A stretch of 64,000 nucleotides of DNA from Takakia lepidozioides (taxonomy: Eukaryota; Plantae; Bryophyta): assembly GCA_030704615.1 (NCBI GenBank), contig CM060734.1:51398001-51462000 (forward strand), read 5' to 3'. The translations under genes were made by a program, and so were the position numbers. Of the stretch, positions 6,211 through 61,184 are shown piece after piece. The stretch's first letter is position 1; each line of letters starts with the position of its first letter. The notes under the pieces were generated by a model. That model did not search any database, had not been told where the DNA came from, and was given only the letters and a program-made list of their open reading frames with translations.

Positions 6211-6228
6211 CTTTGCTGCCCTCAACAG

Positions 6229-25235: not shown

Positions 25236-26317
25236 TGGAGGGTTCGAAAGGTCTTGCCCTCAGGCGTCTTGATCTTGGAGGGTCGGGATGACATAACTTG
25301 GAAGGACCATGTGCATAATTGTGCGCCATGTCACCTTCCAAATGTCGATGGCAGGATTGATCCAAACCTGGCAGTGGTATCTGCAAGTTTGAGGTGCATG
25401 TTGTGTGGATCTGCTAGAGGGGCAGCCACCATGCTGGTGTGTGATCGGTGCTCTAGAGGTTGGCAGATGCTTGACTCCACCTCTTGAGATGGTTCCGGAT
25501 GGGGATTGGTTATGTCCACATTGCATTGGATAGTGGGAGTGGATACAACCATGGAAGGCTGACAAGAAACGCAAGGCCAAGCTACTAGGAGACCTTGAAC
25601 ACATGAGATCCTGGCTCAAGTTCACAGATTGCAAGACGGCGACTAACGATGGGGCTACTCTTGTACCCGGCCTCTTGGTCTATAGAGTTTGAGTACAATA
25701 GGGACAGTGATAGAGGACTTAGTACAGCTGTGGCTATTACATCTTGTAGCTATCTGGAGTTAGAGGGACCTATCCACCAGCTAGGGGGGCGATTGTGGCA
25801 GACTACTTTATTGTGCATATATGCGTTGTGTGGTTTGGACAGCGATGTAGTTGTGTAGCGATATGTATGCGCACGACAGCTGTCAAGTTAAATAAACACA
25901 ATGTGAAACTAACTAGAATAAAACTAGTTATTTGTATTTAACATTTGGATTTAGTTCAAGTGTTAAGTCAGGTGTCAAGTTTAGTTTGACACCTGAACCG
26001 TCTTATCTTCACGAGAGCGTCAGTCGTGCGGCTCATCTCTCTCGAGTTGAGCCTGCACGACCGAGCTCTTTCACCATTCAGAACCTAAGTGTGCTTATGA
26101 AGGGAGGATAGGTTGTTGTGGGGTGGAGTCCCCATAGCTTGGGGTGCCCCTGGCTCGACTATTATTTTAAAGAGTGATGGTGTTGTGTTTTGTGTTTCTC
26201 TTGTTATTTGAGTTTAGTTCTTTCTTATGAATTGTGGCAGACTACTTTATTATGCATATATGCGTTGTGTGGTTTGGACAGCGATGTAGTTGTGTAGCGA
26301 TATGTATGCGCACGACA
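25236..26317 (+). mobile_element. 3' fragment of a sibling of the DNMT retroelement: integrase tail with PHD finger, PPT, B-A-B terminal repeats
   Basis: CMLC...CDRC..GW...(frameshift)LTPPL..VPDGDWLCPHC at 25395-25524. The 3' UTR is homologous to 50730-50985. B 25793-25878, GC spacer, A 25881-26230, B 26232-26317. Confidence 0.9.
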
Positions 26318-33178: not shown

Positions 33179-33179
33179 C

Positions 33180-36100
33180 ATGGCTTCTTGGAACATCAGG
33201 GGCCTTGGGGCGGATAATGCTTCCCCAAAGCACGCTAGCGTCAAGTAGTTTCTAGCCCCTTATCTTCGGAAAGATGCAATTCTCTTCCTGCAAGAACACA
33301 AACTCGATCTAGGGAAAATCGCTTCTCTCTCAGACAATCTCTGGCCACGAGCAAACTCCCTATGGAAACCAACTTCTGAAGGTTCCAGAGGAGGCACCGC
33401 CATCTTGGTTTCCCCATCCCTCTTTCAATTTATTGTCTCAGAAGGCTCTTGGGTTCCAGGTAGAGTTCAGTACTGTGCCATAGACCTCCCAACCAACGGT
33501 GGCCGGCTGGGGTTAATTAATATCTATGCTCCGAACTCGCCGGCAGGAAGGGCTCAGCTCTAGGAGTCCATAAACACCAACATGAAACTAAAACAGGACA
33601 TATATTTCTGGATGCTGGCAGGGGACTTCAATATGGTTGAGTCTCCTTCCGACAGACGGGGTCTTGGTCAGTTTAACCTAGACGTGACAGAGACTCAACA
33701 CTGGCACTCCCTCACCCTCAACCACAATTTGGTGGAAATAGAAATGGTGAACCGGGGGCCTCCGCCCCCCTCAGGCCCTATCTTCACTTGGTCAAATAAC
33801 AGAGCCCTCGCCGATCTCCAAATGGCCAGATTGGACAGATTCTACGCCTCCTTGGACTGCATTCAATGGTCCCGGAGGCTACCTCAACAGCCCATCCACC
33901 CCGGCTTTGATCACGCCGTCATTGAGGCTTCATTGGATATTCCAAACACTCGCCCAAGGGGCAAAGGTCTTTACAAAATGAATGCCTCTCTGTTACAGAT
34001 CCCGTAGTTCGTACATGGCTTGCAGACAGCTTGGTCTTGGGCTGGCGCGGCCTTTCAGAACCCTTCAGATAGGTTCATGACCAAGCTCGTAGCGGTGGGG
34101 GCAGCTAGTCAGCAGATGAGTAGAGAGATTGCAGCCACTAGGAAAAGGAGGGTAGGGGCCCTCATCAAATGTCTCTCAGTCTGTCAAAGAAAAATGGAAT
34201 CTCCCCGCTGTGATCAGGAAACTTACGATACCTACCTGGAAGCAAAACAAAACTTGCAATTCTTCCAAGACCTGCAGGAGCAGAAGCTTAAGATGTCAAC
34301 AGGTGTTAACTGGTCATCCAAGGGAGAAAAAATGTCCAAGTATTTCTTTGCAAAAACCAGGCTTAGGAAGGCAGGGCAGACAATTTCTGAACTAGCTGAC
34401 AGAGCATCGGGACTGACATTCACAGACCCCAAACCCATGGTTTCATTCGCTGCCAGCCACTTTCAAACCCTCTTTAGGAGTGACAGGCCTGTAGAAGCAG
34501 CCATACTTGATGCTTGCTTGGCGCACTCCCCTCTTCTCATCGCCCCGCCTATAGTCAAGGCGGTGGAATTTTACAAAAACCTATGGCCTGACATCTCGCT
34601 TGACTTTGGGGCCATGGCCAACCACATCTTTCAGGCGAACCATATGCCAGGGAGCATGTCACAGGGAGTCATCTCTCTGATTTTCAAAAAGGGTGATAGG
34701 ACGGACTTAAGCAATTATAGGCCCATAACTCTCCTCAGTGTTGCTTATAAGATTATAGCCAAATGCTTGGCTCTACGTCTTCAGCCTCTGCTACCCTCAA
34801 TCATTAGACCTAGCCAGTCGGGCTTTATTAAGGGAAGATATATCATGGATAATATTCTTCTGGCACAGGAGCTTCCCTAATATGCCCTTCAAACACAGCA
34901 GGCGATTGTCCTAATCCTTCTAGACTTTGAGAAAGCGTTTAACAGGGTAGAATGGCCTTTCCTCATGGGCACCCTGACCAAGATCGGTGTGCCTCCCTCC
35001 TTTTGTCGATGGGTGCGCATTCTATTGAAGGGGTCAACCAGCAGGGTGATCATCAACGGTGCAGTGTCAATGCCATTCAACTTGTTTCGATCTGTCCGTC
35101 AAGGCTGCCCCTTGGCTCCTTTCCTTTTCATTATCGCCGCCGACACACTTGATTACATGCTACAAGCAGACACACAGATTCTGGGTCTTAGAATCACAAA
35201 CTACATAACTAATCAGCGTGCTTACATCAGGGAATCCATGTATGTAGATAATACTTTCCTTATGCTGCAAGCAAGCCAAACCAACCTGGACAGAACTGCA
35301 GCAACCTTGGAGAAGTTCTGCGAAGCTTCCGGTTTCAAGGTCAACTAGAACAAAACCTGTGCCATCCTCGCTGGTGATAAATCCAAATCCCTTCTGGGAC
35401 GAATGCCCTCTTGGGGCCAGGCCTGGGGCCTATCATGGCTGCAACCTAACCAGACGACAATGCTGCTAGGATACACCTATGGGCTGGATATCACCGATGA
35501 ACAATGATTCGCACCCATTCTTTCCAAGATTAAAAAAAACCTCACTTTCTGGGGCTGTAAGTTCCTCTCAATCACAGGTCGGGCACTTGTGGCCAACCAG
35601 ATTCTCTCAGCTGGCCTATGGTTCTACGCAACATCATGGCGCCCCTCTAAAAGGCAAATTGGAGAATATAAAGCCTTATTGCGGAATTTCATTTGGGGAG
35701 CTAGCAAAGTGGGCCAAAAAGTCAGGCCACAGGTCTCCTGGAGACAGATCTGCCAGCCAAAAAAACAGGGAGGACTGGGGGTTCTAGACCCGGAAATCCA
35801 AATTACAACACTCCTCGAAAAATGGCTGCCAAGATTCTTAGGCCCAGAAGGTGGCTGGTGGAAGTTTTTGGTGATGGGTAATCTGATGATGGCAAGTCCC
35901 CTAAAGACCTCTAGATGGCACCCCTCCATTCGCTGGATCACACAGGGATTCAAGCACAAAATGGTAGGATCGTCCCTTTGGAACGTCATCTGGAAAGCTT
36001 GGGCTACACTGAGACCTTTTCTTCGCAAAAAAGAGCCAGAAAAATTCGAGGAAACCCTCCACCAGCACCTTTTTTTGAACACCAACATGCCCACACAATC

Positions 36101-37382
36101 TGAAAAATTGCTAGCAAAAAAGTGGTTTGCCTGGGACAGCACGGGCATTAGTCAACTAAAACACCTGTGGTTGCCTACAGGCTTCCTACATATTGACACA
36201 ATCTGCCCTATTCTGGGGTCGATCAGAGCCAAGGCCGGGCTGCAGGCGGTCATAAATTCTACACCTCAAACCTGGTCCCTGTCGCTGCAGGCAGGACCAC
36301 TGACCCCCTCCACGAACTTCTGGACATTAGGAGTCATAAGCAACAGGCTCACCATCATTTTGGTGATTTCTGCCACGGATACTCACTTCTCAGGGTTCAC
36401 TTACCATATAAATCCCGAAACACTTGTGCTGACCTTGGTTTCGCACCCAAACCCTCTTCCCCCGTTTCTTTCATACCCCAGTGAGAATATGCAACTGGTC
36501 ATCTAAGTTCAAAGAGTTTGATCCCCAACCACCTCTTACCATGCCTGTCCTGTCCTGGCTCAATACCTCCACATTTGTTTGGATCCTGGGAAGACCTCTG
36601 GCGGACCTCCAGCTGGACCCCAAGGAATGGGATTGGTCCTTTGGCCGCATTGCATCACCCCTTCTTACCTACACCCCCAAGATGGCTTATAGGGCTCTTA
36701 ACAGACAGCCAGCCCTCTCCATTAAGTGGAATAGCAAATGGAGTCACTTTGGTTTCTTGAATGAGAACTGGTCAGCAATCTGGTCTTCCATCTGGCTAAA
36801 AATTAGGCCGGCCAAGATCTCAGCGTTTTTATGGCAAGTAGCGAACAGAGCCCTAAAAGTGGGAGAATGGCTGCAATTCCATGAAGCTCTTCTATGTCGA
36901 TGCTGCTCCTCGAGTATCATTGAATCTCATGAGCACTGCCTTCTGCCCTGTATTCTATAGACATTGGAGTCTCTCAAATATTGGCCCTCTGGATCTGCTA
37001 CTCAATTACAACAAAACAACCAAAGGCCGATCCTTTCCATGCCCGGTCTTCGAGACTCTTCGCGCTTCTACGTTTATGGCACCTATGGCGTGCTAGATAT
37101 AAAAAGACCTTTAGCAAGGAGACAATCAGTACCTCAGTTTTGTTGGCTATGGTGTACAAAGATCTTTTAATAGAGTCGAAAAAAGCTTGGGCAAAATGTG
37201 TTGCAGACTGTCATAGGACTCCAAGGCAGGCGCCAGCAATCCATGCATCATTCAGGACGACGTGGGCCTGCCATGGCGTCATTTGTCAAAGCGACGAGCA
37301 GGAACACTGCATTTGGAACACTCTCCCCCCTCAGAGCTGGAGAGACCTCAGAGCTCCACTCCACGGCCTCGCCGGAATTTGA
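33180..37382 (+). pseudogene. LINE ORF2 (AP endonuclease, reverse transcriptase, zf-RVT)
   Basis: SWNIRGL, FLQEHK, NIYAPN, GDFN, RLDRFY; NYRPITLL, QSGFIKGR, LDFEKAF, VRQGCPL, YVDN (degenerate YADD); CRCC..ESHEHC. Multiple stops and frameshifts. Confidence 0.93.
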
Positions 37383-39137
37383 GAGAGACGTGAACTGGAA
37401 ACACGTCAAGCACCCCGCCACTACTTCCAGGCTAAATTTTCGTTAAGTGTAGTTGTAGATTAGCTCCTCGATAATCTCAGCTGCAGGCTTAACTTTTTGG
37501 AAGTCTCTCGGTCAGGGCTAGGTTGTTGTGAGAGGTTCGCTCTCTTTCAGCACACTGCTGCACTTTAGCAGCAGGGAATGGATCTCCCTTCACTGACTAC
37601 AGTGTGTAGTCCTCATGGTGCAAAAGGGGTTTTATTTTTTTTCCCCTCGATCTGGAATAAATGCAATATTTAAAGTTAAAAAATACAATATATAAAATTA
37701 GGAATACTTAAATAACTAAATTTTAATATTAAAATATAAAATATTTTCCAATAAACAGCAATCAGTTATCAACGACATTAACCCTTAAGTTCCCATGCCC
37801 TTTTTTGACTTTTTACCAATTTTGGGTACCCAACTACAGTAAATTGCCCCTAGAAACCTACCAAAAATCATCCAGAGATTCCAGCCTTATAGTAGTGGGC
37901 CCAGCTCATTTATGCATGACATACCAAAAAATGAGCCAAGTCCATCGTGGAAATTGTGAGATTATAGCGTTCATAACATATATGTGGAAGTGCTAAAGTC
38001 TCCCTCAAACCTTGCCACTAGGAGCGTATCTAGCAATGAAAGATACTTTAAAACGTATCTTATATTGTGGGATGTTTGCACGAAACCTGTTGAACCTTCA
38101 ACAACCGGTCACAAAATCCAAAAATGACCGGCTCTCGCCGGTCATCCCTGTGCATGCCAAGGTATTTAATGCACTGCATTCAAACAATTCAAATGAAAAC
38201 ACTACATTATAATGACACCTAACCAGTACAATTGTTTGTCTTATTAACTTATCATAATGATGCACCATGCATACACACAAAAGTCAATGCGTATTAATGA
38301 TATCTCATCCACCTAATATGCAATGCATAACCATTTACCATCCAAAATCCAACGGCCGTTCCATTCCGTCCAACGGTGCATGTCCCTTACCATCCAAAGT
38401 CCAACGGTTGCACAACCATTTACCATCCAAAACCCAATGGCCATTCCATTCCGTCCAACGGTGCATCTCCCTTACCATCCAAAGTTTAACGGTGGTTTGC
38501 AACGGTGCACGCTTGCGTCCAACGGATGGTAGTCTTTACCCAATGGACGATAAATTTTAATAGATCTTTCATAACATTAATTGCTAGGGGCTAATTGCAC
38601 ACTATAAGAATTGCAAGCCCTCACATACCACCTACGTAAGTGGTTGTGGGTTCAATCCACCCTTGGTGTCACAAAGGTGTCCACCTTCCTAATGGAAGAC
38701 AATAACCCTTCGGGATGAAGAGACGCCATAATTTATGCTTCCTTCGGGAGGCGTCAAATATTTAATATTTAATATTATGAATCAAACAATACTTTTAGGG
38801 TTTAGGCGATATCATGGATCAACCCTTTCATTACTTTATTACTGATTGTATTGAGTCCATATACCTCCAATGATATGTGAACGACTTAAAATATATATTA
38901 TCAATTGAATGGGCATTTGTTCGAGCATGGTCAGTGCACCTATTCAATAGTTGCTTGAATATGTAAAATGTTACATATTCAATGTTGGATGGGACACGAT
39001 GAATCTCATTCATTCTCTGGTTCGAACCAGTATTGTACTGGTATGTCCATTTTAACATACCAGGCTGGTCATGGTATGCCTAATGGACCTTTAAGGCCAA
39101 TATGGTAGAGCCCAGTGCAGATCCACAGTGGCCGCGT

Positions 39138-39465
39138 TGTCAAGTTATTTTACCACTAGTGTGAAAACTAGCTAGGAAATAGCTAGCTTTTACATATTGA
39201 CATTTGGGATTGGCCCAAGTGTCAATCCAGGGGTCAAAGCAGATTTAGGCCCTGGAGTGGTTATCTTCACGGCAAGCGCGGGAGGCTCATCTTTCTCGAG
39301 TTGAGCCTCACCGCGCCTAGCTATGGCGCCGTAGTGTGGATTCCCCATGGCGTGGGGTGCACTTGGCTTGACTTGTATTTGAGTGATGAGGTTATATATG
39401 CATGAGTTTATGCTTCAGCTTTGTGAGCTCGCATGAGCTTGTGCTTGTATTCTTCTTCTTTATCA
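39138..39465 (+). repeat. Terminal repeat A1 (matches A2 51177-51503; one extra A noticed)
   Basis: tgtcaagttattttaccac...ttcttctttatca present twice. Confidence 0.95.
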
Positions 39466-39482
39466 CTCGAGAAAGATGAGCC
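39465..39482 (+). promoter_or_regulatory. Self-priming primer-binding site complementary to repeat A
   Basis: ACTCGAGAAAGATGAGCC is the exact reverse complement of GGCTCATCTTTCTCGAGT (39284-39301). There is no TGG-starting tRNA PBS. Confidence 0.85.
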
Positions 39483-41004
39483 CGTATCTATGAGTGCTAG
39501 ATACGAGTTAGTTGTAGCACTTGTGGTTTTTGCTTGAGAATGAGAGAAACCAAGTTGTTATGCAAGGAGCACCGTGGAGCTCTTGGTTATTAGAAGCGGA
39601 GGCGATGTGGGTTACGAGGTGGTAAACCTTGGCATTCGATCTTCAGCTTCATAGATGAAAGCACCATACTGTAGGTAATTCCAGAGCACCTTGATGGTTT
39701 CAGATTGTGTACATGCATGAGCAAGCACGATTGGGAAGAGGACCAGTCAAGAGCAGGTTATAGTGGCTTTGGTGGCAAAGCTGAGAACTGGACTTGGGAA
39801 TGCGAGCTGTCATTGTGTGAAGGATTGCAAGACCAAGCGAAAGGGCTGATTTGGCTTGGGGCAAATCAGTGCACTTTGTGGAGTATGGTGAGATTGGGTT
39901 TCAATCTCGAGCTTCAGCATTGAGAGGGCTCTTGTCATGGCAAGAGCAGGGCTGGAACAGGAGCTAAGAGGTGCGGCAAGGCCATGGAATGTGCACCTAG
40001 GGTTTCAGAGCTTGGAAGAAGAGCTCTTGCACCACAAGAGAAGTGTCTTGTGGCTGGAAATGTAAGCCTTAGGGTTTCAGGAGCTTGGCAAGGGCTGTGG
40101 AGTGCTTAGTCTTGTCTTAGAGAGCATCAAGGAGCCAAGGAGCCAAGATAGGGGGCTGATATCTCTTGTGTGAAGAGGTTGCATGTGTGGAGCATGTATT
40201 CAGCTCATTGAAGCTTCCATCTTCAAGCTTGGAGGGCAAGCAAGGAAGAGGGAAGGGCTGACTTCCCTTATGTGAGGGCAATGTATGTGTGGAGCATGCT
40301 ATCAGCCTGGTGAAGGCTTGCACTTTTAGGTGTGGGAGTGCAAGAAAGGAAGGAAGGGGCTGGTTTCCCTGTAGGGCATGTAGAGCATGCTTTCAGCCTG
40401 CTGAAGCTTGTATTATCAGGTTTGTGGGTGCAAGAAATGAAGCAAAGGAGCTGATTCTCTTATGGTGAGAGTGGGGCATGTGTGGAGCATGCCTTCAGCC
40501 CATTGAGGCTCTTGTTTTCAAGCCTTAGAGAGCTAGAACGGAAGGTCTAGGGCTGGTTTCCACTTGGAGTGAAAGAACAGCACTTGTAGGGCCTATGTGA
40601 GTTGGGGTTTCAACTTCAAGCTTGAAGGGAGCGCAACTCTTGAAGCAACAGGTGTAGAGGGCTGGAATAGGCTCTAAGACAGATGCTATGGCCAATGAGG
40701 GGAGTGCTTGAATGAGTGCTCACAAGGGCTGGGAACCAGCAGGGCTTGGTTGTTTGCCATTGAGTTTAGTGGCGTGTTTGGGGAGGCTAAGTGAGAAAGA
40801 AGGCTTGGTTTGTGGCAACCACCTCATGGCTTAGGGCTACTATGGTGGTGTGTGGGAGCCGAAAGAGCAAGGATACCTTGCTGATTTCCTCACAGCCACC
40901 ATAGCTCGGTGGAAAGAAGCCTAGAGTCCAAGAGACACAAACCCTAGCTTGGCGTGGCTAAACCCCTTGGAGAAATGGCTAAACTGCCAGAGCGGCCATG
41001 TGTG

Positions 41005-43110
41005 GGGCTGTGACAGGTTGTGGCAAGCTGTGACGGGCTGTGGCAAGCTGTGACAGGCTGTGATGGGCTGTGTCAGGCTGTGACAGGTTGTGCCCAGTGG
41101 CCTTTGGGGCTGTGACGGGCTGTGCGGGGCTGTGACAGGCTGTGCCCTGAGGCCTGTGGGCTGTGACGGGCTGTGACAGGCTGTGCCCAGTGGCCTGTGG
41201 GGCTGTGACGGGCTGTGACAGGCTGTGATGGGCTGTGATGGGCTGTGACAGGCTGTGCCCTGTGCCCTGTGGGGCTGTGACGGGCTGTGTCAGGCTGTGA
41301 CAGGCTGTGCCCAGTGGCCTTTGGGGCTGTGACAGGCTGTGCCTGAGGCCTTTGGGGCTGTGACGGGCTGTGAGGGGCTGTGACAGGCTGTGCCCTGTGC
41401 CCTGTGGGGCTGTGACGGGCTGTGTCAGGCTGTGGCGAGCTGTGACGGGCTGTGCGGGGCTGTGACAGGCTGTGCCCTGAGGCCTGTGGGGCTGTGACGG
41501 GCTGTGACAGGCTGTGGCGAGCTGTGACAGGCTGTGCCCATGGCCTTTGGGGCTGTGACGGGCTGTGACAGGCTGTGCCCAGTGGCCTGTGGGGCTGTGA
41601 CGGGCTGTGACAGGCTGTGGCAAGCTGTGACAGGCTGTGATGGGCTGTGATGGGCTGTGACAGGCTGTGCCCTGTGCCCTGTGGGGCTGTGACGGGCTAT
41701 GTCAGGCTGTGGCGAGCTGTGACGGGCTGTGACGGGCTGTGACAGGCTGTGCCCAGTGGCCTGTGGGGCTGTGACGGGCTGTGACAGGCTGTGGCAAGCT
41801 GTGACCGGCTGTGATGGGCTGTGACGGGCTGTGTCAGGCTGTGACAGGCTGTGCCCAGTGGCCTTTGGGGCTGTGACGGGCTGTGCGGGGCTGTGACAGG
41901 CTGTGCCCTGAGGCCTATGGGGCTGTGACGGGCTGTGACAGGCTGTGGCGAGCTGTGACAGGCTGTGCCCATGGCCTTTGGGGCTGTGACGGGCTGTGAG
42001 GGGCTGTGACAGGCCGTGCCTGAGGCCTTTGAGGCTGTGACGGGCTGTGAGGGGCTGTGACAGGCCGTGCCCATGGCCTTTGGGGCTGTGACGGGCTGTG
42101 AGGGGCTGTGACAGGCCGTGCCTGGGGCCTTTGGGGCTGTGAGGGGCTGTGAGGGGCTGTGACAGGCCGTGCCCATGGCCTTTGGGGCTGTGACGGGCTG
42201 TGAGGGGCTGTGACAGGCCGTGCCTGAGGCCTTTGAGGCTGTGAGGGGCTGTGAGGGGCTGTGACAGGCCGTGCCCTAGGCCTTTGAGGCTGTGACGGGC
42301 TGTGATGGGCTGTGGCAAGCTGTGACAGGCTGTGATGGGCTGTGATGGGCTGTGACAGGCTGTGCCCTGTGCCCTGTGAGGCTGTGACGGGCTGTGAGGG
42401 GCTGTGACAGGCCGTGCCCATGGCCTTTGGGGCTGTGACAGGCTGTGAGGGGCTGTGACAGGCCGTGCCTGGGGCCTTTGGGGCTGTGACGGGCTGTGAG
42501 GGGCTGTGACAGGCCGTGCCCATGGCCTTTGGGGCTGTGACGGGCTGTGAGGGGCTGTGACAGGCCGTGCCTGAGGCCTTTGAGGCTGTGAGGGGCTGTG
42601 AGGGGCTGTGACAGGCCGTGCCCTAGGCCTTTGAGGCTGTGACGGGCTGTGATGGGCTGTGGCAAGCTGTGACAGGCTGTGATGGGCTGTGATGGGCTGT
42701 GACAGGCTGTGCCCTGTGCCCTGTGAGGCTGTGACGGGCTGTGAGGGGCTGTGACAGGCCGTGCCCATGGCCTTTGGGGCTGTGAGGGGCTGTGAGGGGC
42801 TGTGACAGGCCGTGCCCATGGCCTTTGGGGCTGTGAGGGGCTGTGAGGGGCTGTGACAGGCCGTGCCTGAGGCCTTTGGGGCTGTGACGGGCTGTGAGGG
42901 GCTGTGACAGGCCGTGCCCATGGCCTTTGGGGCTGTGACGGGCTGTGAGGGGCTGTGACAAGCCGTGCCTGAGGCCTTTGAGGCTGTGAGGGGCTGTGAG
43001 GGGCTGTGAGGGGCTGTGACAGGCCGTGCCTGAGGCCTTTGAGGCTGTGACAGGCTGTGAGGGGCTGCGACAGGCTGTGCCCAGTGGCCTGTGGGACTGT
43101 GACGGCCTGA
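41005..43110. repeat. About 2.1-kb minisatellite of roughly 10-bp GGCTGTGA(C/G/T)(A/G) units with higher-order periodicity, in the retroelement leader
   Basis: Seen directly. Confidence 0.97.
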
Positions 43111-43848
43111 CCAGTGAGCTGTGTGGGCCTGTGCTGGTCTGTGGTGGCCCGTGTTGACCTGTGGACGGCCTGTGCTGACTCGTGGAGGCACTGGTGGACT
43201 GCCTAAGGACTGGCATGTGGTCTGGAAGGCCAAATTTTGAAGCTCGTGGAGGGCGGTTTGAGGAGTATCTTCATGATATTCCCATGGTCATGCAAGTGAG
43301 GATAGAGAGGAGAGGCAGAGTGTTGGGATGAGAGCATGCTGGGGTTAGGCATTGCTTTAGCTTCTCTTCCTCGTAGTTTCCACCCTCTCATTAGGCCAAG
43401 ACCTTTCCGTAGGTGGAGGCAAGAGTCAGTCCGGGTTTGGGCTGGGGTGTCCTTGCAGGAGCAACACCGTGGAGTTGTTTTTGGTGTGGGGGAGTTGTCG
43501 ATCTGATTTCTTGTGTTTGGATCCCCTCCATACCTGCATGCTTGATTGTGCGCCATGCTAGTTTTGTGTGGGCGCTTGTTTTTATAGGTGATTGGTCCGG
43601 ATTTGATCACCGGCCAGTCCTAGAGCATGCTGTCGATGGTGAGGCTGGGGTGATGACCAGCCAGACCATCATTGTTTCTCCTGTGGTGAGGTTGGAGGTG
43701 ATGACCAGCCAACCATAGGAGTGCTTGTGGTGGATGCAGGTACAGGTGTAGGCTATGTTAGGAACTTAGTATTCCAAACCATAAGCCGCAACAGGTTCTC
43801 TACCCGGTTACCTTGTGAAGAGGGGGTTAGGGACATGTTCATGACCGG

Positions 43849-46502
43849 TTGAGTGTCAACACGGAGGTGCCACTAGTTGCTGGGGACAGTGCCGGTTCGA
43901 GCACTAGCGATACTAGTGGGTACACGAGACGAGGTGTGCGGTTTAGGCCACCTTCACCTCCTGTGTCTTCTACGGAAGGTTCTGATTCGGATTGTGAATC
44001 GGGAGGACTCATACCGGCGGTGCAAGTTGTTTCTTTGCCATTGTTGTGGACACAATGGAGGAGATGTATGGAGCTACCAAGGGGCCACGAAGGTACTCTG
44101 GGGCGGTGGGCACCATTGAGTTGGATGATTTTATCCAAGAGTTTGATAGTTGGTGTGATTTGCAGCAAATGCGCAATCCACAACTATTTACGCCGTTCAT
44201 GGCATGGAAAGGGCTGTTTCAGCACCTTGAGGGGCCGCCTATGGATGATTACCATGAGTTCAGGCGGGGGCATGAGGTTGAGATCGAGGAGTGGAGGATG
44301 TACTGGTCACCCGACTATGTCTCCATCACTAGGGGCACTAGAGCCACGAGGGCAGTGGCTACACCTGCCGCTGCACCGGCAGCTTCAGCAAGCAGCAGTG
44401 GGACTGGTGGTACAGTAGCTACGACGTCCACCCAAGCCACTACCGCACCAGCACTAGCACCCGTGCCTGCCTTCAACCCTGTCGTGGAGTTCTTCGAAGA
44501 GTTGAGAGGGAACTACCAAGAGGTGAGGACAGAGAAGTTGCGGAGCTTGCAAGAGTTCCAACGGAAGCTGACCGAGAGCTTGAGGGAGGCTTTCACTCGC
44601 ATGAGGCGCTTGATAAATGTAACCCAAGGGGTTACGGAAGCTCAGGCAGTCCAATTCTGGTATGGGATATTGGACAAGGAGCTGAGGAGAAGGGTGCGGG
44701 ATGCAACTCTCCTACAAGCGGCCCAACCCACCTTAGCAAATGTGTTTTTGCTGGCAGAGCGGATAGAGCTCAACATGGTGGAGGAACGAGTGGTCATGGT
44801 GGGATTTGCTAAGGAGACACCACGGGGTAGTGGTGCTCCTAGCCAACCACCACCTCAACGTGCTCAAGGCAACAAGGGGGCTCAGGTGAAGCTCAGGGAA
44901 GGGCAGAAAGGACCTCAGATGCAGGGGTCTCTCCCTTCATTTGCTGGCCAACAACGGGCGGATGTGGTGTGCTGGACATGTGGAGGACCCCATGTCAAGA
45001 AGGATTGTCCAGAGGGAGGCAAAAGGGCCGCACATGCACAGCCTGCCACAGTTACAGTGTGGGCATTGTGGCAACACGGGCATGGAGAGGCTCAGTGTTA
45101 TGGTTTGCATCCTGAGTTGCGCCCAGGCCAGTTCCAAGGGAACAATGGCGGGGCGAGGGGCGGGGGGAGAGTGGAGCAGCCCAGAGGACGAGGTGGCCAG
45201 CCACGAGGTGCAGGCCAAGGGCAAGCTCAACGTGGCCAAGGACGCGGAGGTCAGGGTGTTGACCAAGGCATGGCCAACCGGCTTCAGCAGCTAGAGCAGA
45301 GGCTCGCTGCCATGGCTACAGCTCAGGTGGTACCGGCTCTAAGGCCGGATGGTCCACCTCCTGCTCCTGAGGGAGGAGATATGGGAGGCATGGGATTCAT
45401 GTGTGGAGCAGCACTACCACTAGTGCAGGTGGAGTCTGCTGCAGCCGTGACTCGAGGAGCAGCACGAGTTCCTGAGCCACGAGGTGCAGAGGTGGAGTTG
45501 GATCCACAGCGTGGGGAGGCAAGCCGTCAGGCTAGGCTTCCTCAGTCATTCACATTGGCGGAGACAGTGTCGACGCCATCCATGGCACCTAGTTCTCGCC
45601 CGACTGTTACGACGAGAGCGGAGGTCACTATGCCATTGGGGAGAGCTACACGGGTAGCACCACTACCTAGTGTTGCCAAGGCTATGGCAGCTAGTGTGCT
45701 GCTAGGAGCGGCCACATCTGTGTGCCAGGCTCCATTGTTCTCGGCTACCATGATTGCGACGCCGGGGGTAAGACCAGCTGAGGTGTTCAGGCTGGCAGCT
45801 ACACTCTGTGAGAGTGGGGAGGTTACTTCATCTTCTGCGGAGATAGTGGGAGGTGTAGTGCCGGAGGGATCCTCGGATTTGAGGGTCAAGACTGCCACGG
45901 CGGCGCCATGGCAAGCTGCAGCTGCCAGGTTGATGGAGCTGCCAGCTAGGCCAGCCATTGAGCGCGCCATGGTGACACCTGGAGTTGTCATGTTAGACAA
46001 CCAGGATGGCATTTTCTGTTTGATGGACCGGCAGGCAAAGAGGTACCGGCCACTGCGAGTCTTGTTGGACTCGGGAGCTCAGCCACTGATGTTGGGCAGA
46101 GCTGCTATTGCAGGCTTGGGCCTCACGGAGGCGGATATGGAGCCTTGTCCTTTCCAGATACAGACGTCTCTCGGAGGATCGGAGCAGGCTCGGGGCATGA
46201 CACGGCATGAGTTAGCTATCAGACTACGGCCGGATCACCCTACAGATGGCTCAGTGATGCAAGCCAAGGCCATTGTGACAGACGCAGTCTCATACGATGT
46301 CCTGGTTGGTGGGGCAGTGTTGTACCCCATGGGCTTCACCCTGGATTTTTGGGAGGAGTCAGCTTCCTATAGGCCTGCATGGCAGTCAGGGGAGGGCCGG
46401 CGTGTGCAGCTCCCTGTGACGTTCATAGGAGGAGTTGCGGTTGCCCAGCGAGGCAAGATGCCGACACTAGCAGCATTCACAGCGGGCAGTGAGTTGGCCT
46501 AG
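43849..46502 (+). pseudogene. Gag plus aspartic protease
   Basis: Gag-like ELDDFIQEFDSW...QEFQRKLTESLREAFTR; knuckle CWTCGGPHVKKDC; RG-rich linker; protease VLLDSGAQ...YDVLVG. Frameshift near 44040. Confidence 0.88.
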
Positions 46503-46779
46503 AGAGTTGCTTGAGGGCAATGCTCATTCAGAGGATGTACCACCTTCGGGGAGAGCAGGATGACATGTATGGTATGGCGGAGTTGCCTACCATGGTTGCT
46601 CAGACTCCATTGTGGGGCACGAGCAAGGATTTGCAGCGGGATGCTGATCGACGGGTGCAACAAGCCTGGGTGGAGGCTTTTGTACCGTCAGGAGAGGAGG
46701 AGAGTGTGGGGATTGCACCAGGACCACCTCAATTGTCTCCATTGGACACCACACCTATTGTGTGGCAGTCTCCGGATGA

Positions 46780-47729
46780 AGGCATTTGTCTTCTGGACTT
46801 GTTTGCGGGATCAGCACCGGATTGGCTGCTGTGTTACAGGCAGGTGTACGAGTTCGGCGTTACCTGTATGTGGAGAGGGATGAGACTGCACGACGCGTTT
46901 CACTTCGCCATGTTGCTCAGTTGGTTGCTCAGTTGCGTGAAGCGTACCCTGAGTTGTTGTCGTGTCTGCAATTCGTGGATATCAGCAGGCCTTGCCAGCA
47001 GATATTTCGTTGCTGGGGGCGCAGGATTTGGAGCGGGTTGGCTCCATTGATCTGGTAGTGGCAGGTTGGCCCTGCCAAGGGCATTCATCAGCCGGGCATG
47101 GCAATGGATTGCGAGACTCGAGGTCGGGTCTGTTTTGGGAGATGGTGCGGGTTTTGCGCCACTTGCAGCTTCATCAAGCTGTATCTCCAGCATACATCTT
47201 GGAGAATGTGCCACTGATGGGCAATTCTCGGGCCAGGGTGATGGCCAGTGTGCATCAAGTCCGGTCGTGGCTTGGGTCAGCAGTGTTGCTGGATGCAGCT
47301 ACAGTGGGGTCACGGGCTCATCGTCCACGGCTATGGTGGACTAACATGATGCCACCCGCACTGCTCAAGCGTGCATTTGATGGGGTGCAGCGGCCAGCAC
47401 ATCTCACAGTGGATAACATTCTGGACACAGGGAGGCAGTCTCAACGTGTGAGACATGATGACCGTTCGCCTTTGGCAGTGGTCAACAAGGTGGGTCAACC
47501 ACGAGCAGCATTACCTACACTGCTCAGCTTCCCAGGATCGCATGCTTTCCGGGATAGTGGACCTGGCCTCCTGTGGGATGCTCAGTTGCAGCAGTTAGTG
47601 GAGCCTAATGCTGACGAGCGTGAGCGGGCAATGGGTTTTACCACTGGTACCACGGCGGTGTCGTCTCTTTCTGAGGCATCACGTCGTCAAGTGTTGGGGC
47701 AAGCAATGGATCTCAATTGCTTGACCTAG
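46780..47729 (+). pseudogene. DNA (cytosine-5) methyltransferase domain within pol
   Basis: Motif I LLDLFAG(ISTG), II YLYVE, IV DLVVAGWPCQGHS, VI YILENV, VIII AHRPRLW, IX ERERAMGF, X VLGQAM. Two 1-nt frameshifts (about 46810 and 46960). Confidence 0.93.
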
Positions 47730-48193
47730 ATTATCAGCTTGGCTCTAGCTGAGCAACGCAGAGTGCGGAATACACTTCCCTCAATGGTCTCTCTGCCTAC
47801 CGAGACGGTACAGGCAGTGAGTGGGGGCGAGCATATGAGGACCACGGGGTGCATGCATCCATGGCACACGTGGGAGGTGCTCGAGGTTCAGAGGGAGTTG
47901 GCAGCCAAGGCGGCTGTGATGGATGAGGTTGGGGATTCTTCTCGAGTTGAGGAGGTCCTCAAGGATGAGATGATGGGGCAGGATGATGCCTTGTCATTGA
48001 CTGAGCAGGTAGGGAGTACTGCTCAAGAGGTTGCAGCATAGCAACCACGGGACGCGTCCTCTACCTCTAAGCCCACTGGACTTAAGGTTGTAGTTACGGA
48101 GGACAATTGGGAGCCTGACATTGGACCCATTGTCACCGGAGGAGACGTATACGGCGGTTCCTGAGGGCTTACAGGAATTGCTTTGCCTTCAGT

Positions 48194-50032
48194 TTGAAGG
48201 ACTTGGGAGCACTGAAGGGTCAAAAGATCCGTATTGAGTTGGCCACTGACACGCCAATCTTTCGGAGACCCTATAGATACAGTGACATGGAGAGGTCTTT
48301 GATTCAGATGAGGACTCAAGATCTCTGGGAGGCAGGTTTGGTGGAGCTCTCTGGTGGAGAGTATGCTTCAGCCACAGTGATGCCAGCCAAGAAGGATGTC
48401 TATGGCAATTGGACGGAGAGATGTATGTGCGGTGATTACCGGCCTGTAAATCGTCAGACCAAGTCCGATAAGTATGCCATGCCAACACCAGAGGAGATCT
48501 TTGATGCCATCGGGCATGCTAAGGCCTTTAGCACTTTGGATTTACGATCCGGATATCACCAGTTGCCAATCAAGGAGGCGGACAAGCAGAAGACGGCATT
48601 CTGGGGGATCAATGAGCACGGCAAGGATTGCCTATATCAGTGGCGGTTCTTACCATTTGGGCTTAAGAATGCTCCTGCAGAGTTTCAGAGAGTCATGGAT
48701 AGGATTCTAGCAGGGGTGGACTTTGCTCGGTGCTACATAGATGACATCATCATCTTTAGTGTTACGATGGAGGAGCATGAGAGACACCTTCAGGTGGTAT
48801 TGGAGCGCTTGAGAGCGCACGGATTGAAGTTGCATCCGGGGAAGTGCAAGTTTTTCCACAACCAGATTGAGTATCTGGGTCACATGATATATCCTGGAGG
48901 ATTGGGGGTACAGCAGACTAAGGTAGAGGCCATTGCACAAATTCCACGCCCCACGGATGTGAGCCGAGTTCGAGCGTTCATGGGGTTGGCAAACTATTAT
49001 AGACGGTTTGTCAAGGGATTTAGTACCATTGCAAAGGCTCTAACCAAGCTGACCAAGGTGGACCAGGAGTGGCAGTGGGAAGATGAGCAGGAACGAGCTT
49101 TTCAAGAGCTCAAGGCGAGGTTGACCTCGGCGCCTATCTTGAGACGACCTATCAGGGGGCGTCCCTTTCAGCTGCATACGGATTGGAGCATGCTGGGGCT
49201 TGGAGCGGTGCTCACACAGGTGGATGATGAGGGAAGAGAGTTCGTAGTGGCTTACGCTAGCCGCTCGAACAACGCTGCAGAGGCTAAGTACAGCTCATAT
49301 GAGGGAGAGTGCTTAGCTGCAGTGTGGGCCGTGGCACACTTCAGGTGCTATCTATACGGCAATCTTTTCACCCTTGTCACGGATCACCAGCCACTCAAGT
49401 GGTTGATGGAGTCAGACAAGCTTACAGGGAAGCTTGCACGGTGGGCACTTATACTCCAGGAGTATGACTTTCAGGTTGTGCATCGACCGGGTTTGGTCAA
49501 TCGGGATGCGGATGGATTGAGTCGCAATCCATGCATGAGCCAGCAGGATGACACTGGAGCTCGGTGGCATGGTGAGACGGACGAGGAGATGGTGCCGGGA
49601 TGGCACGCATCTGCATTTTTGTGTATCTTGGCATCGGGAGGTCAGATTGGACCTACAACAGGGATGACTGTAGACAGAGTGTCTGAGGACCCTGAGGCTA
49701 GTGATGAGCTAGGTGGTGCCAGAGATATACATGAGGATTCGGCTGTGTTGGACTACCTCCGCACGGGAGACACGGCAGCCATTGTGACTGCCAGGGAGAG
49801 GGATCGGATCCTGCAACGAGCCAAGAGGTTCAAGTGGGAGGGGATACACCTACTTCGAGTGTGGGAGGGTGGTCGGGTGAGGATTGTGCCTCACCCCACA
49901 CAGCGTGCACGGTTAGTGCGGCATGCCCATGAGGAGTTGGGGCATTTTGGAGTGCGACGCACTCACAGTTTACTGCAGGGGCAGAGTATTGGTGGCGTGG
50001 TATGCATACAGAGGTGCAACAGTTGTGGCTAG
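48194..50032 (+). CDS. Reverse transcriptase, RNase H and start of the integrase Zn domain
   Basis: CGDYRPVN, LDLRSGYHQ, LPFGLKNAP, YIDD, YLGH; LHTDWS, EGECLA, TDHQPL, DADGLSR; HEELGHFG. Confidence 0.96.
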   Translation: MKDLGALKGQKIRIELATDTPIFRRPYRYSDMERSLIQMRTQDLWEAGLVELSGGEYASATVMPAKKDVYGNWTERCMCGDYRPVNRQTKSDKYAMPTPEEIFDAIGHAKAFSTLDLRSGYHQLPIKEADKQKTAFWGINEHGKDCLYQWRFLPFGLKNAPAEFQRVMDRILAGVDFARCYIDDIIIFSVTMEEHERHLQVVLERLRAHGLKLHPGKCKFFHNQIEYLGHMIYPGGLGVQQTKVEAIAQIPRPTDVSRVRAFMGLANYYRRFVKGFSTIAKALTKLTKVDQEWQWEDEQERAFQELKARLTSAPILRRPIRGRPFQLHTDWSMLGLGAVLTQVDDEGREFVVAYASRSNNAAEAKYSSYEGECLAAVWAVAHFRCYLYGNLFTLVTDHQPLKWLMESDKLTGKLARWALILQEYDFQVVHRPGLVNRDADGLSRNPCMSQQDDTGARWHGETDEEMVPGWHASAFLCILASGGQIGPTTGMTVDRVSEDPEASDELGGARDIHEDSAVLDYLRTGDTAAIVTARERDRILQRAKRFKWEGIHLLRVWEGGRVRIVPHPTQRARLVRHAHEELGHFGVRRTHSLLQGQSIGGVVCIQRCNSCG

Positions 50033-50727
50033 GTGCATGGTGTGTGACAGGGTGCGTGCTTCATTCAACGCCCCTACACCACAGTTGCATCCTTTACCTA
50101 TCATGGGATTGGGCTACAGGTGGAGTCTTGACTTCGCAGGACCGTTGCCACTGACTATGCGCCACCACAGATATGTGTTGGTGATGGTGGAGCACTTCTC
50201 CAAGTGGATTGAGTTGGTTCCATTGCCTGACAAGGCTAGTGGGGGCTGCGTATGCATTCTTGGATCGTGTGCTTAGCCGATTTGGTGCTCCAGCTGAGGT
50301 ACTCACGGACCAAGGGAGAGAGTTCTTGGGGGAGTTTCAGGCTTTGTGTGATAAAGCCTTGATCGACCACCGCACCACTTCTCGGGATCATCCTGAGGCC
50401 GATGGCTTAGCAGAGAGAGTTGTTCAGACGGTGAAGAGGGGTTTGCGCAAGTATGGCTTGCAGAAGGGACACCTAGGAGATTGGGATCTTCAGGTTCCTT
50501 GGTTAGCCATGGGCTACAGGTTCAGCAAACAAGCATCACTTGCCTCCTTCTCACCATATTTCCTTCTCTTTGGCCGAGAGCCGGATTTGCCTGCAGCCAT
50601 TCGTAGGGACACTGCTCAAGTCCTTAACCTTGACGATCCGGACGTGTGGGTACGTGCATGTGATCAGCGTGCAGAGTTGTTCAAGAAAGTCATGCCCATG
50701 GCTTTTGAGAACCTTGCCATTGCATAG
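49923..50727 (+). pseudogene. DDE integrase, frameshifted, C-terminal tail deleted
   Basis: H..H / CMVC zinc motif, SLDFAGPL, VLTDQG, DGLAER, SPYFLLFGR; ends abruptly at ENLAIA*. Confidence 0.92.
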
Positions 50728-50975
50728 TGGCAGTGGACATGACTGGAGGCAGCTAACAAGACATGGGAGGCCAAGCTCATAGGAGTCAATACATGAGATC
50801 CCAAGCTCAAGTTCACAGGTTGCAAGACGGCGACTAACGATGGGGCAACTCTTGCACCCGGCCTCTTGATCTATCGAGTTTGAGTGTAGTAGGGATAGTG
50901 GTGGAGGACTTAGTGAGGCTATGGTCACTATCACATCTTGTGGCTACCTGGACTTAGAGGGACCTAAGCACAGCT

Positions 50976-50985
50976 AGGGGGGCGA
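50976..50985 (+). promoter_or_regulatory. Polypurine tract
   Basis: AGGGGGGCGA immediately before repeat B1; the same tract is at 25783-25792 in the sibling. Confidence 0.85.
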
Positions 50986-51692
50986 TTGTGTGGACTAGTG
51001 ACTGCCATAGTGGGCAGTGTAGTGACAGCCTAGTGACTGACTAGTTGTAGCCTAGTGGTTGGACTAGTGGCTAGACTAGTGGTAGACTAGTGGTATACTA
51101 GTGTGTGGTGTGCACATGTGTTGTGTGGTTTTGGACAGCGATGTAGTTGTGTAGCGATATGTATGCGCACGACAGCTGTCAAGTTATTTTACCACTAGTG
51201 TGAAACTAGCTAGGAAATAGCTAGCTTTTACATATTGACATTTGGGATTGGCCCAAGTGTCAATCCAGGGGTCAAAGCAGATTTAGGCCCTGGAGTGGTT
51301 ATCTTCACGGCAAGCGCGGGAGGCTCATCTTTCTCGAGTTGAGCCTCACCGCGCCTAGCTATGGCGCCGTAGTGTGGATTCCCCATGGCGTGGGGTGCAC
51401 TTGGCTTGACTTGTATTTGAGTGATGAGGTTATATATGCATGAGTTTATGCTTCAGCTTTGTGAGCTCGCATGAGCTTGTGCTTGTATTCTTCTTCTTTA
51501 TCATTGTGTGGACTAGTGACTGCCATAGTGGGCAGTGTAGTGACAGCCTAGTGACTGACTAGTTGTAGCCTAGTGGTTGGACTAGTGGCTAGACTAGTGG
51601 TAGACTAGTGGTATACTAGTGTGTGGTGTGCACATGTGTTGTGTGGTTTTGGACAGCGATGTAGTTGTGTAGCGATATGTATGCGCACGACA
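50986..51692 (+). repeat. Right terminal structure B1 (50986-51174) - GC - A2 (51177-51503) - B2 (51504-51692)
   Basis: B1 and B2 are 189-bp direct repeats. The B1/A2 junction is the palindrome GACAGCTGTC. Confidence 0.95.
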
Positions 51693-52226
51693 GCGTGGAT
51701 AGGGTAGATGGCTTGTACGAGTATTCATATGTGGGACATACCCTGATCCTAGGCATGAGTAAGTCAAATTTTAAATGAAGATACTAGGTCTATATATGCA
51801 AGTGTATGGTATGACAAATTAGGAGTATATATTATGTATGTGTAAAGATAGGATATGTAGAGAATGATTTCTTCATTTTTTTTGGAATTAAGATATAGTG
51901 TTATTTTCTACATTAATGCACAAATGTGAATGAGGATAAGCACAAATAAATTGTATCGTTACACATACCCATGCTAGCTTGGGTTCATCAATCCTCAATA
52001 CAAGACTGAAGGAGTATGAAAATAGTCCATACTTATAGTGGTATGGTAGGTAGGGAGTAGGTCCACTGTTCAACATCCGGGGGTATAAGGTATAGTCGGG
52101 GTATAAGCCCCAAGACATACCCAACCGGTATGTTCTACAATACCCTTATTTATACTCATACTCATCAATTCAATATTCTCATGTTGTGTGTTTGAATCGT
52201 GTATTTCTTCTTAATTTTCCTATAAG

Positions 52227-53049: not shown

Positions 53050-55130
53050 AGTGTGAATCTTTGCACGAGCAAGTAACGCCTACATTCATACGTTCTACAA
53101 TACCATATTAAACCATAAAAATCATTGCACTCGTGAACTTAGAAACCACGATCCATATGATTTTAGTTGGATTTGAAACTTTACATGAGCAATTACCACC
53201 TACATTTTTAGGTCCTACAACAATATCGTGTACAACAAAAATGGTTACACCAGTGAACTTAGAAAACGTCGTCCGTACGATTTTGGATTTGAAACTTTAC
53301 ATGAGCAACTAACACCTACATTCATAGGTCCTGCAACAATATCATTAACAACAAAAATGGTTATACCAGTGAACTTAGATAATGCTGTCCATACGATTTT
53401 AGTTGGATTTGAAATTTTACATGAACAACTAACACCTACATTCATAGGTCCTGCAACAATATCATGAACAACAAAAATGGTTACACCAGTGAACTTAGAA
53501 AACGCCATCCGTACGATTTTAATTGGATTTGAAACTTTACATGAATAATTACCACCTACATTCTTAGGTTCTGCAACACTCTACAACAATATCATGAACA
53601 ACAAAAATGGTTACACTAGTGAACTTAGATAACGCCGTCCATACGATTTTAGTTGGATTTGAAACTTTACATGAGCAAATAACACCTACATTCATAGGTC
53701 CTGCAACAATATCATGAACAACAAAAATGGTTACACCAGTGAACTTAGAAAATGTCATCCGTACGATTTTAATTGGATTTGAAACTTTACATGAGCAACT
53801 AACAGTTACATTCCTAGGTCCTGCAATTATATCATGAACAACAAAAATGGTTACACCAGTGAACTTAGAAAACGCCGTCCATACGATTTTAGCTGGATTT
53901 GAAACTTTACATTAGCAACTAACACCTTCATTCATAGGTCCTACAACAATATCATGAACAACAAAAATGGTTACACCAGTGAACTTAGAAAACGCCATCC
54001 GTACGATTTTAGTTGGATTTAAAACTTTACATGAGCAACTTACACCTTCATTCATAGGTCCTGCAATAATATCATGAACAACAAAAATGGTTACACTAGT
54101 GAACTTAGAAAACGCATCCGTACGATTTTAGTTGGATTTGAAATTTTACATGAGCAATTTACACCTACAGTCCTAGGTCCTGCAACCATATCTTGAACAA
54201 CAAAAATGGTTACACCACTGAATTTAGAAAACGCTGTCCATACGATTTTAGTTGGATTTGAAACTTTACATGAGCAACTTACACCTTCATTCATAGGTCC
54301 TGCAACAATGTCATGAACAACAAAAATGGTTTCACCACTGAACTTAGAAAACGCCATCCGTACGATTTTAGTTGGATTTGAAACTTTACATGAGCAACTT
54401 ACACCTACATTCCTAGGTCCTGCAACCATATCATGAACAACAAAAATGGTTACACCAGTGAACTTAGAAAACGCCGTCCGTACGATTTTAGTTGGATTTG
54501 AAACTTTACATGAGCAACTTACACCTATATTCCTAGGTCCTGCAACCATATCATGAACAACAAAAATGGTTACACCAGTGAACTTAGAAAACGCCGTCCG
54601 TACGATTTTAGTTGGATTTGAAACTATACATGAGCAACTAACACCTTCATTCATAGGTCCTGCAACAATATCATGAACAACAAAAATGGTTACACCAGTG
54701 AACTTAGAAAACGCCATCCGTACGATTTTAGTTGGATTTAAAACTTTACATGAGCAACTTACACCTACATTCATAGGTCCTGCAACAATGTTATGAACAA
54801 CAAAAATGGTTACACTAGTGAACTTAGAAAACGCCGTCCATACGATTTTAGTTGGATTTGAAACTATACATGAGCAACTAACACCTACATTCATAGGTCC
54901 TGCAACAATATCCTGAACAACAAAAATGGTTACAACAGTGAACTTAGAAAACACCATCCGTATGATTTTAGTTGGATTTGAAACTTTACATGAACAACTA
55001 ACACCTACATTCCTACGTCCTGCAAAAATATCATAAGCAACAAATTTCATTACACCGACATATTTAGAAAACACCATTTGTATGATTTTAGTTGGGTGTG
55101 ACACTTTGCACCAGCAATGAACATGTACAT
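53050..55130. repeat. 120-bp tandem satellite, about 17 units
   Basis: Unit aacaacaaaaatggttacaccagtgaacttagaaaacgcc...ggtcctgcaacaatatcatg; the edge units are more diverged. Confidence 0.97.
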
Positions 55131-55275
55131 TCATATATATATATATATATATACAGTTGGCATGATGTCATAAATGTCTAAAACTCGTTGCATTTCCAAT
55201 AATACATTAACACCAGTGAAATAGCAAAACAATGTATACATCAATGATAGTCATATCTTATACGAAAGTCATGGC

Positions 55276-60600: not shown

Positions 60601-61184
60601 GACGGCGTGAAGTTCTTCTACATGAGATATTCATTACAATCTGCGGTTCAAACCCTCCTGATTAGGTGACATGAAACAAACTACCACTGTGATATCCAAC
60701 TAAGAAATACCAATCCCAGTGGGATTCATATCAACAGCTCCGTGGCTCTTTGATGTAGTACCCCTAACTGCCAGTCAAGCGAGAGCCAGAGGGATGGATT
60801 CGTGGAGTTTCACCCACCTTGTATGTGCAAGTCATCTTGAAGTTGCCATAGCGCTCCTGCACAACCACAACAATCTGATTACAGGAAGTAAGAGCCGATA
60901 TAGACATCATGCAGGAAATTAACTAGCCCTCGGTCCAGCCACTTGAGACTGCCCTGTAAGAAAATTGCTGCCCGTGTGCTCTTTCACTTGTGACAACAAT
61001 GCCTTGTCTCTACCTCCACCTTGGTTTCAGGCCTGCTCCACTATGCCAGACGGACAGTCACCTATTCATTCGGACTTTTATAAACTTGACATTTCAAGAC
61101 ATGTCTCCTCTTGAACGCAGTAAACTGAATGGCTGCAAAGGTAGAAGCTTACCTTTTACAGCGTCTGATGAATCATGAGAGGGC

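Follow-up and report, generated by a model that had tools for sequence, protein, structure and literature searches.

The window, as we call the 64,000 nucleotides of contig CM060734.1 of the bryophyte Takakia lepidozioides analysed here (assembly GCA_030704615.1; positions 51,398,001 to 51,462,000, forward strand), contains a long terminal repeat (LTR) retroelement of the Ty3/gypsy type in which the direct repeats are split. From left to right the element consists of a repeat A1, an internal part of 11.5 kb, a repeat B1, the dinucleotide GC, A2 and B2, and it is flanked on both sides by GCGT (Table 1). Alignment of the repeats confirmed this A…B-GC-A-B layout, together with the TGTC…GACA ends, the flanking GCGT and the palindrome at the B/A junction, all of which had been claimed in an earlier reading of the letters alone (the original prediction). 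A1 and A2 differ solely by one single-base indel, and the A at 51503 can be assigned to either A2 or B2. The outer ends, TGTC at 39138 and GACA at 51692, are matched exactly by the two arms of the palindrome; 10-bp palindromes as such are common, with 83 in the window, and it is the position of this one that counts. The GCGT duplication, a 4-base match expected by chance about once in 256, lies within the 4-6 bp of canonical Ty3/gypsy elements, as read from one copy only. The two full LTRs of such elements are not found: there is no B at the left end, and the integrated ends correspond to the B/A junction.

Table 1. Features of the element and of the second copy (copy 2), in positions of the window
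Feature	Position	Strand	Remarks
Left target-site duplication GCGT	39134..39137	.	
A1, left end, begins TGTC	39138..39465	+	328 bp; 99.7% to A2; 3' part of the reverse-transcribed repeat
Hairpin in A with the predicted self-primer at 39284-39300	39276..39316	+	z -5.3
Primer-binding site, self-priming type	39466..39482	+	complementary to 39284-39300
Tandem array in the long 5' untranslated part	41006..43109	.	10-bp and 51-bp periods
gag-protease reading frame	43998..46502	+	834 codons stop to stop; weak Pfam matches, E 0.03 and 0.04, below cut-offs
C5 cytosine DNA methyltransferase domain inside pol	46953..47729	+	PF00145 E 1.5e-13
Reverse transcriptase, RNase H, start of integrase zinc finger	48119..50032	+	E 3e-33 and 6e-36
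DDE integrase core, D(34)E, split over two frames	49917..50727	+	rve E 2e-05 and 0.0016
Conserved 36-nt motif, 3' untranslated part	50829..50864	+	
Polypurine tract AGCTAGGGGGGCG	50972..50984	+	adjoins B1
B1	50985..51174	+	100% to B2; 5' part of the reverse-transcribed repeat
Palindrome GACA-GC-TGTC at the B/A junction	51171..51180	.	predicted integrase cut site
A2	51177..51503	+	327 bp
B2, right end, finishes GACA	51503..51692	+	fused to A2 at TTATC-A-TTGTG
Right target-site duplication GCGT	51693..51696	.	
Copy 2, diverged, 5'-truncated	25239..26317	+	77-86% identity over aligned parts
Copy 2 integrase C-terminus and PHD finger	25239-25524		
Copy 2 polypurine tract	25779-25791		
Copy 2 B1	25792-25878		then GC
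Copy 2 A2	25881-26231		
Copy 2 B2	26232-26317		finishes GACA, then CTGT

The coding part follows the gene order of canonical Ty3/gypsy elements, gag, protease, reverse transcriptase (RT), RNase H and integrase (the gag and protease matches being weak), with the methyltransferase domain, scored against the general Pfam family PF00145, placed between protease and RT. The pol of the element is broken into several frames, and the rve scores fall below the curated cut-off because the integrase core is split in two of them. About 140 residues of the integrase C-terminus and the PHD finger are missing near 50720, and copy 2 keeps them; the loss of the integrase end from an element whose repeats are almost identical suggests that it moved recently in trans. 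No tyrosine recombinase was matched in 67 of the 75 open reading frames (ORFs) of at least 60 aa, the other eight (six frames in the tandem array and two duplicate frames in A2) standing outside the scan, and PF00589 is carried by none of the 120 listed homologues. Together with the rve matches, this bears out the claim of a DDE integrase without a tyrosine recombinase. No chromodomain was matched in the element; copy 2 has a PHD finger instead. The integrase region also gave, in an alternative frame, a ToxA_N match (E 0.01, below cut-off) that was discarded as noise. The 2.1-kb tandem array occupies much of the 4.5-kb 5' untranslated region.

The layout is not peculiar to one copy. The right end of copy 2 reads polypurine tract (PPT)-B-GC-A-B, with a shorter B that stops at the same GCACGACA as the element. 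Three further members of the same clade, L070, L071 and L072, are contigs inside prokaryote genome bins, and we infer that they are eukaryotic (plant or algal) contaminants of these bins. L072 reads PPT-B(106 bp)-GC-A(360 bp)-B, stops at CACGACA and continues into 21 unrelated bases. L070 (66% identity in RT/RNase H), a contig closed into a circle, reads PPT-B-GC-A-primer site, and L071 (42% in RT) ends at CGCACGACAGCTG, about 110 nt past its G-rich tract; both may be collapsed assemblies. The A and B of the element gave no blastn match to any of the three contigs at E 0.01. The core CACGACA-GC-TG is nevertheless conserved in L070 and L071 despite their diverged repeats. The split-repeat layout is thus a family trait, kept over deep divergence.

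Contigs of four public runs, three of them (X1, X2 and X4) from one sample and the fourth (X5) from a second study, were aligned to PPT-B1-GC-A2. Long, mutually discordant loose ends were found behind 51174 (40 contigs in X1, agreement 0.36; 32 in X4, 0.37) and discordant ones before 51177 (22 contigs in X4, agreement 0.40), whereas the loose ends behind the A end at 51503 were uniform and corresponded to the primer site (nine contigs in X2, agreement 0.90; ten in X4, 0.97). The discordant flanks at the B/A palindrome therefore represent different insertion sites; mixed flanks at the B start or the A end were absent among the rows listed. With copy 2 and L072 ending in the same way, the proposal that the integrated ends fall at the internal B/A palindrome held up. 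The A end runs into the B start in contigs of X1 and X5, and copy 2 and L072 have B2, so that an assembly artefact, a possibility that the original prediction had itself raised, is an unlikely origin of B2.

Further searches added little. In a metagenome scan with the 19-nt B end, all 12 matches were due to chance and came from one unrelated sequence family. Among viral contigs a single-protein query found nothing and an alignment query found 57 distant RT loci; in the four of these 57 that were checked (L013-L016) the palindrome occurred in none and D(35)E in three, and a palindrome match at L078 was again fortuitous. Searches of genome bins G001 and G002 found no further copies.

The repeat that is reverse-transcribed is B+A, because the PPT precedes B and a self-priming site follows A; this claim of the original prediction stands, both signals being conserved in relatives, and the tract GCTAGGGGGG adjoins B in four elements. 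Immediately after A1 come 17 nt that pair perfectly with 39284-39300 inside A (about 2e-8 by chance), an arrangement that, judged by its sequence, is that of the self-priming Tf1-Sushi and Tcn1-like elements. L070 has compensatory changes: its 12-nt primer site is altered at two positions, and the pairing partner carries the corresponding two changes. In L070 and in the element alike, 165 nt separate the primer end from the A end. The original prediction had placed the primer site correctly next to A1, overlooking its self-priming type as well as the methyltransferase domain and copy 2. It had also put the outer end of the LTR at TGTG, which needs correction, since the relatives place the B start one base before TTG (ATTG here, CTTG in L070 and L072). 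It is therefore improbable that the reverse-transcribed repeat starts with TG, and the ends of the complementary DNA (cDNA) would lack the usual TG. A1 would comprise the distal U3, R and U5, and B1 the proximal U3. Standard LTR chemistry with such signals yields B-GC-A…B-GC-A, and B2 is not copied.

The predicted self-primer is part of a hairpin that was more stable on folding than 200 of 200 shuffles in both copies of the window (z -5.0 in copy 2, where the outer stem differs). Such hairpins were located at 39276-39316, at 26023-26061 and at 7228-7255 of L070, with stem sequences that differ among relatives, and they may act as a switch by competing with the pairing of the primer site. The 36-nt motif also recurs, near 25638-25673 in copy 2, at 6751-6786 in L070 and at 2121-2156 in L072, always 120-150 nt or more upstream of the PPT; it is about 80% kept in relatives with diverged repeats and could be a packaging or RNA-structure signal. 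Rfam gave no match in the element, this motif included, and two weak Rfam matches in relatives were attributed to chance.

Two observations bear on how the repeats arose. Three family-rare alleles (0.13%, 0.3% and 2.2% of the summed contig depth in X1) are common to B1 and B2, and one more (1.4%) to A1 and A2, these depths not being taken as copy numbers; both copies of each repeat therefore came recently from one template, although gene conversion may be an alternative source of the sharing. The joins between A and B, on the other hand, vary: TTATCA/TTGTG in the element, TTATGAA/TTGTG in copy 2 and TCTC/CTTGAG in L072, with more variants in the run contigs. B is kept from its start to within about one base at these three joins, which were read directly. 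ACTTGA, a 6-nt match of the primer-site start to the B start in L070, was considered as a guide for the join and rejected, being absent from this element.

By its proteins the element is a gypsy of the KnitGypsy-Dnmt3 kind, with neither two full LTRs nor a tyrosine recombinase match. A tree of RT/RNase H, built by a quick tree search from the element and 118 of the 120 listed homologues, places it in a clade of 74 rows (Shimodaira-Hasegawa-like approximate likelihood-ratio support, SH-aLRT, 99), where its nearest neighbour is a Marchantia protein (82% identity over 360 columns, support 99). The clade holds proteins of Klebsormidium, Closterium, Haematococcus and Pleodorina, and many others with methyltransferase or PHD domains; relatives of the integrase core include Calypogeia and Marchantia proteins. 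The Klebsormidium protein P0065, which has KnitGypsy-Dnmt3-type domains and falls in the same clade (SH-aLRT 99), is, we infer from organism and domains, KnitGypsy-Dnmt3 itself. The second and third catalytic residues of the integrase are 34 residues apart in 65 of the 73 clade proteins (one has 33, seven were unparsed), as they are in the element (50185-50727), L070 and L072; D(35)E is found in 30 of the 47 rows outside the clade (17 unparsed) and in another gypsy element of the window. D(34)E is a simple marker of the clade, and the spacing may be relevant to substrate choice.

The original prediction had held split repeats to be undescribed for gypsy elements, which is not the case. KnitGypsy-Dnmt3 of Klebsormidium nitens is presented as combining the repeat structure of a DIRS element with Gypsy domains (de Mendoza et al. 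2018, PMC5890265, Fig. 4c legend), the DIRS-type layout being defined there as A-coding-B-A-B (PMC5890265, Fig. 1 legend). Both elements have Gypsy domains, a cytosine methyltransferase in pol and A-coding-B-A-B repeats, whereas ours is closer to the Marchantia protein than to the Klebsormidium one. The text consulted is silent on a palindrome, a duplication, priming signals, D(34)E spacing and mechanism (PMC5890265), and no published mechanism, palindrome, priming or spacing for this layout was found in a search that mostly excluded subscription journals, Repbase and theses. The layout is thus already in print, in one legend, and the integration route put forward below is a new, testable hypothesis.

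Among other gypsy elements, Tf1, Tj1 and Tcn1 are self-primed, with a primer site complementary to their own 5' repeat (PMC4600332, PMC6317226). Tf1/Sushi and Tcn1 have full LTRs at both ends, and Tcn1 has 5-bp duplications and a chromodomain, in contrast to the PHD finger and methyltransferase of the present clade. The REXdb table of 15 gypsy lineages combines self-priming and a 4-bp duplication in none (PMC6317226). Phygy in REXdb has a tRNA-Trp primer site, whereas the primer site here pairs with the element's own A repeat. GCGT fits the NCGN duplication of Phygy, and the right flanks of copy 2 (CTGT) and L072 (AGTC) do not, so that an NCGN target preference finds no support in these flanks.

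The route that we favour, with moderate confidence, is that a linear BA…BA cDNA is end-joined and that the integrase opens the palindrome of its 5' repeat with a 2-nt stagger; the outer ends are probably joined into a circle before cutting. The transcript would start in A1 and end in A2. Judging from the conserved pairing, reverse transcription would be self-primed after A1, the minus strand would jump to A2 and the plus strand would start from the PPT, giving a linear B-GC-A…B-GC-A whose ends are not integrase ends. The A-to-B fusion, observed to vary by a base or two, would then be formed anew in each cycle, either by host end-joining or repair or by an end-to-end jump of the RT. Bridging of ends by an RT with 2-nt overlaps has been described (PMC3035444), against an overlap of only one base here. 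The integrase would cut the internal GACAGCTGTC of the 5' repeat after CA on both strands (GACA^GCTGTC), leaving recessed CA-3' ends and 2-nt 5'-GC overhangs, which is the shape of processed retroviral ends. Insertion would give A…B-GC-A-B, its ends stripped of GC and flanked by a 4-bp duplication, the outcome seen in the one full copy. In favour of this route are the anatomy of the element, the family-wide ends at the palindrome, the conserved core, the compensated self-priming pairing, the alleles common to both copies of each repeat, the variable A-to-B joins and the lack of a tyrosine recombinase match. A 2-nt staggered cut after CA would account for the GC loss, as had been proposed, and for the TG…CA termini; and converting B-A…B-A into A…B-A-B requires the leading B to be moved to the far end, hence joined ends and an opened 5' palindrome.

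Comparable cleavage is known from other systems. In IS3-family insertion sequences such as IS911, inverted ends abut in a circle, which a DDE enzyme opens there with the loss of the few bases between them; IS911 differs in being a bacterial DNA transposon whose junction is made by its transposase, whereas here the junction is copied within the repeat. HIV-1 integrase tetramers cleave the palindrome of the two-LTR junction after CA on both strands (PMC1905944), and foamy virus integrase is reported to cleave two-LTR circles (PMC1180852); a cut of this kind at an internal palindrome is what we predict for the element. HIV-1 two-LTR circles can feed integration, rarely, and are at most a reserve (PMC4372172). 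In these viruses cleavage takes place at the LTR-LTR join and leaves a normal provirus; in the element the site would lie inside the repeat, with a 2-bp spacer, the product would be permuted, and this would apparently be the rule.

Several points weigh against this route. A circle with two repeats predicts a mirror form, A-B-A…B, from opening its other palindrome, and the mirror was found at none of the five PPT-B ends (element, copy 2, L070, L071 and L072), all of which continue with GC-TG; in this small count copy 2 and L072 alone were sampled without bias, the element itself having been picked for its layout and L070 and L071 being perhaps collapsed assemblies. The mirror form would be a dead end, having no 3' A. 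The earlier idea of circularisation followed by integrase opening is thus partly supported, the repeat structure and the GC loss being in agreement with it and the lack of mirror forms in this small count being against it. No circle, transcript or cleavage was observed. Both ends with a testable duplication are present in one copy only, and no empty insertion site was found in the window; X1, X2 and X4 are one sample and may be the source of the window; the variation of the A-to-B joins could come from mutation after insertion; and the element, its own pol being broken, was probably moved by another copy.

The lack of mirror forms would be explained if the element were copied in the manner of DIRS and PAT and the DDE integrase acted only at the exit, an account to which we give a minor though real chance. 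The A2-B2 join would then be inherited through the RNA or by template switching, and the internal B1-GC-A2 would template the outer ends, producing a circle in which the B/A junction is newly made or, alternatively, a linear GC-A…B-A-B-GC that the integrase trims in the ordinary way. All five ends follow from this without a mirror form, the lost GC becomes a normal 2-nt 3' trim, and the repeat order is that of PAT and Ngaro (PMC4157794). It is less easily reconciled with the conserved PPT before B1 and the self-priming site after A1, which indicate standard LTR reverse transcription rather than copying of B2, with the lack of a primer site after B2 or a purine tract before A1, and with the variable joins. 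An order of events in which the integrase cuts the 5' palindrome of the linear cDNA, keeps hold of both pieces and inserts them, and the host then repairs the A-to-B gap in the chromosome appears more doubtful still. It would yield the same product, GC loss, duplication and imprecise joins with no free circle; the symmetry problem remains identical to that of the circle, a chromosome break would be needed for each insertion, and large losses at the joins would be expected, against a B that is intact to within about one base at three of them.

The split repeats also recall PAT, TOC and Ngaro, which have A1…B1-A2-B2 direct repeats in which the internal B/A junction corresponds to the joined outer ends (PMC4157794), and a tyrosine recombinase supplied in trans might integrate the circle as in those elements. 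We regard this as very improbable: beyond the shared layout, the element encodes a DDE integrase rather than the recombinase, as well as a protease; it has a PPT and a primer site, and its TG…CA ends are flanked by a 4-bp duplication; the DDE residues are conserved in the clade, and the ORFs and homologues scanned gave no recombinase. Least credible is a single rearrangement or misassembly of an ordinary LTR element, by tandem insertion or rare integration of a circle. A single complete copy was seen, and rare circle integration has been reported for HIV-1 (PMC4372172); the identical right ends of copy 2 and L072, the dozens of distinct flanks at the palindrome, its retention at 42% protein identity and the similar layout in Klebsormidium (PMC5890265) have largely refuted this explanation.

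If joining of the cDNA ends and opening of the in-repeat palindrome is the route used by the element, it may extend further. We see an even chance that throughout this green-lineage clade, which spans liverworts, streptophyte algae and perhaps chlorophytes, the ends produced by reverse transcription are no longer used and a D(34)E integrase opens circular cDNA at the in-repeat palindrome as an obligatory route. The PHD-bearing Chlamydomonas element Gypsy-7a_cRei, whose left and right LTRs differ by 8 bp (bioRxiv 2022.06.16.496473) and which is outside our tree, may be a chlorophyte counter-example.

Elsewhere in the window, 20544-22434 (minus strand) contains pentatricopeptide-repeat coding stretches, the family being named from the translation, with recent 303-bp tandem duplications. 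Other retroelement pieces, at 15290-17200 (minus strand), 31335-36960 and 6222-7253, include a gypsy RNase H and D(35)E integrase, a region like the RT of long interspersed elements, and a gag-like frame. Two more tandem arrays were found, at 53054-55135 (120-bp unit, 17 copies) and 59276-60601 (385-bp unit, 3.5 copies, with relatives of the unit near 19900-24450). Directly upstream of the copy 2 break lies a stretch at 24785-25130 that starts with CACTACAAGA; it may be the end of a CACTA-type transposon.

Retroelement biology has long asked whether cDNA circles can serve as genuine precursors of integration. If the proposed route is true, the clade would be a natural case, an LTR retroelement group with the circle as its normal integration precursor, and the defined 10-bp substrate makes the question testable in vitro. 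REXdb is based on LTR finders of the kind that require two full repeats, TG…CA ends and a duplication (PMC6317226); these would miss such elements or set their boundaries wrongly. In this clade the ends that the RT makes and the ends that the integrase uses would be separated, and this would, if the route is true, offer a simple path, or working model, from ordinary LTRs to the split repeats of the PAT/Ngaro-type tyrosine-recombinase elements.

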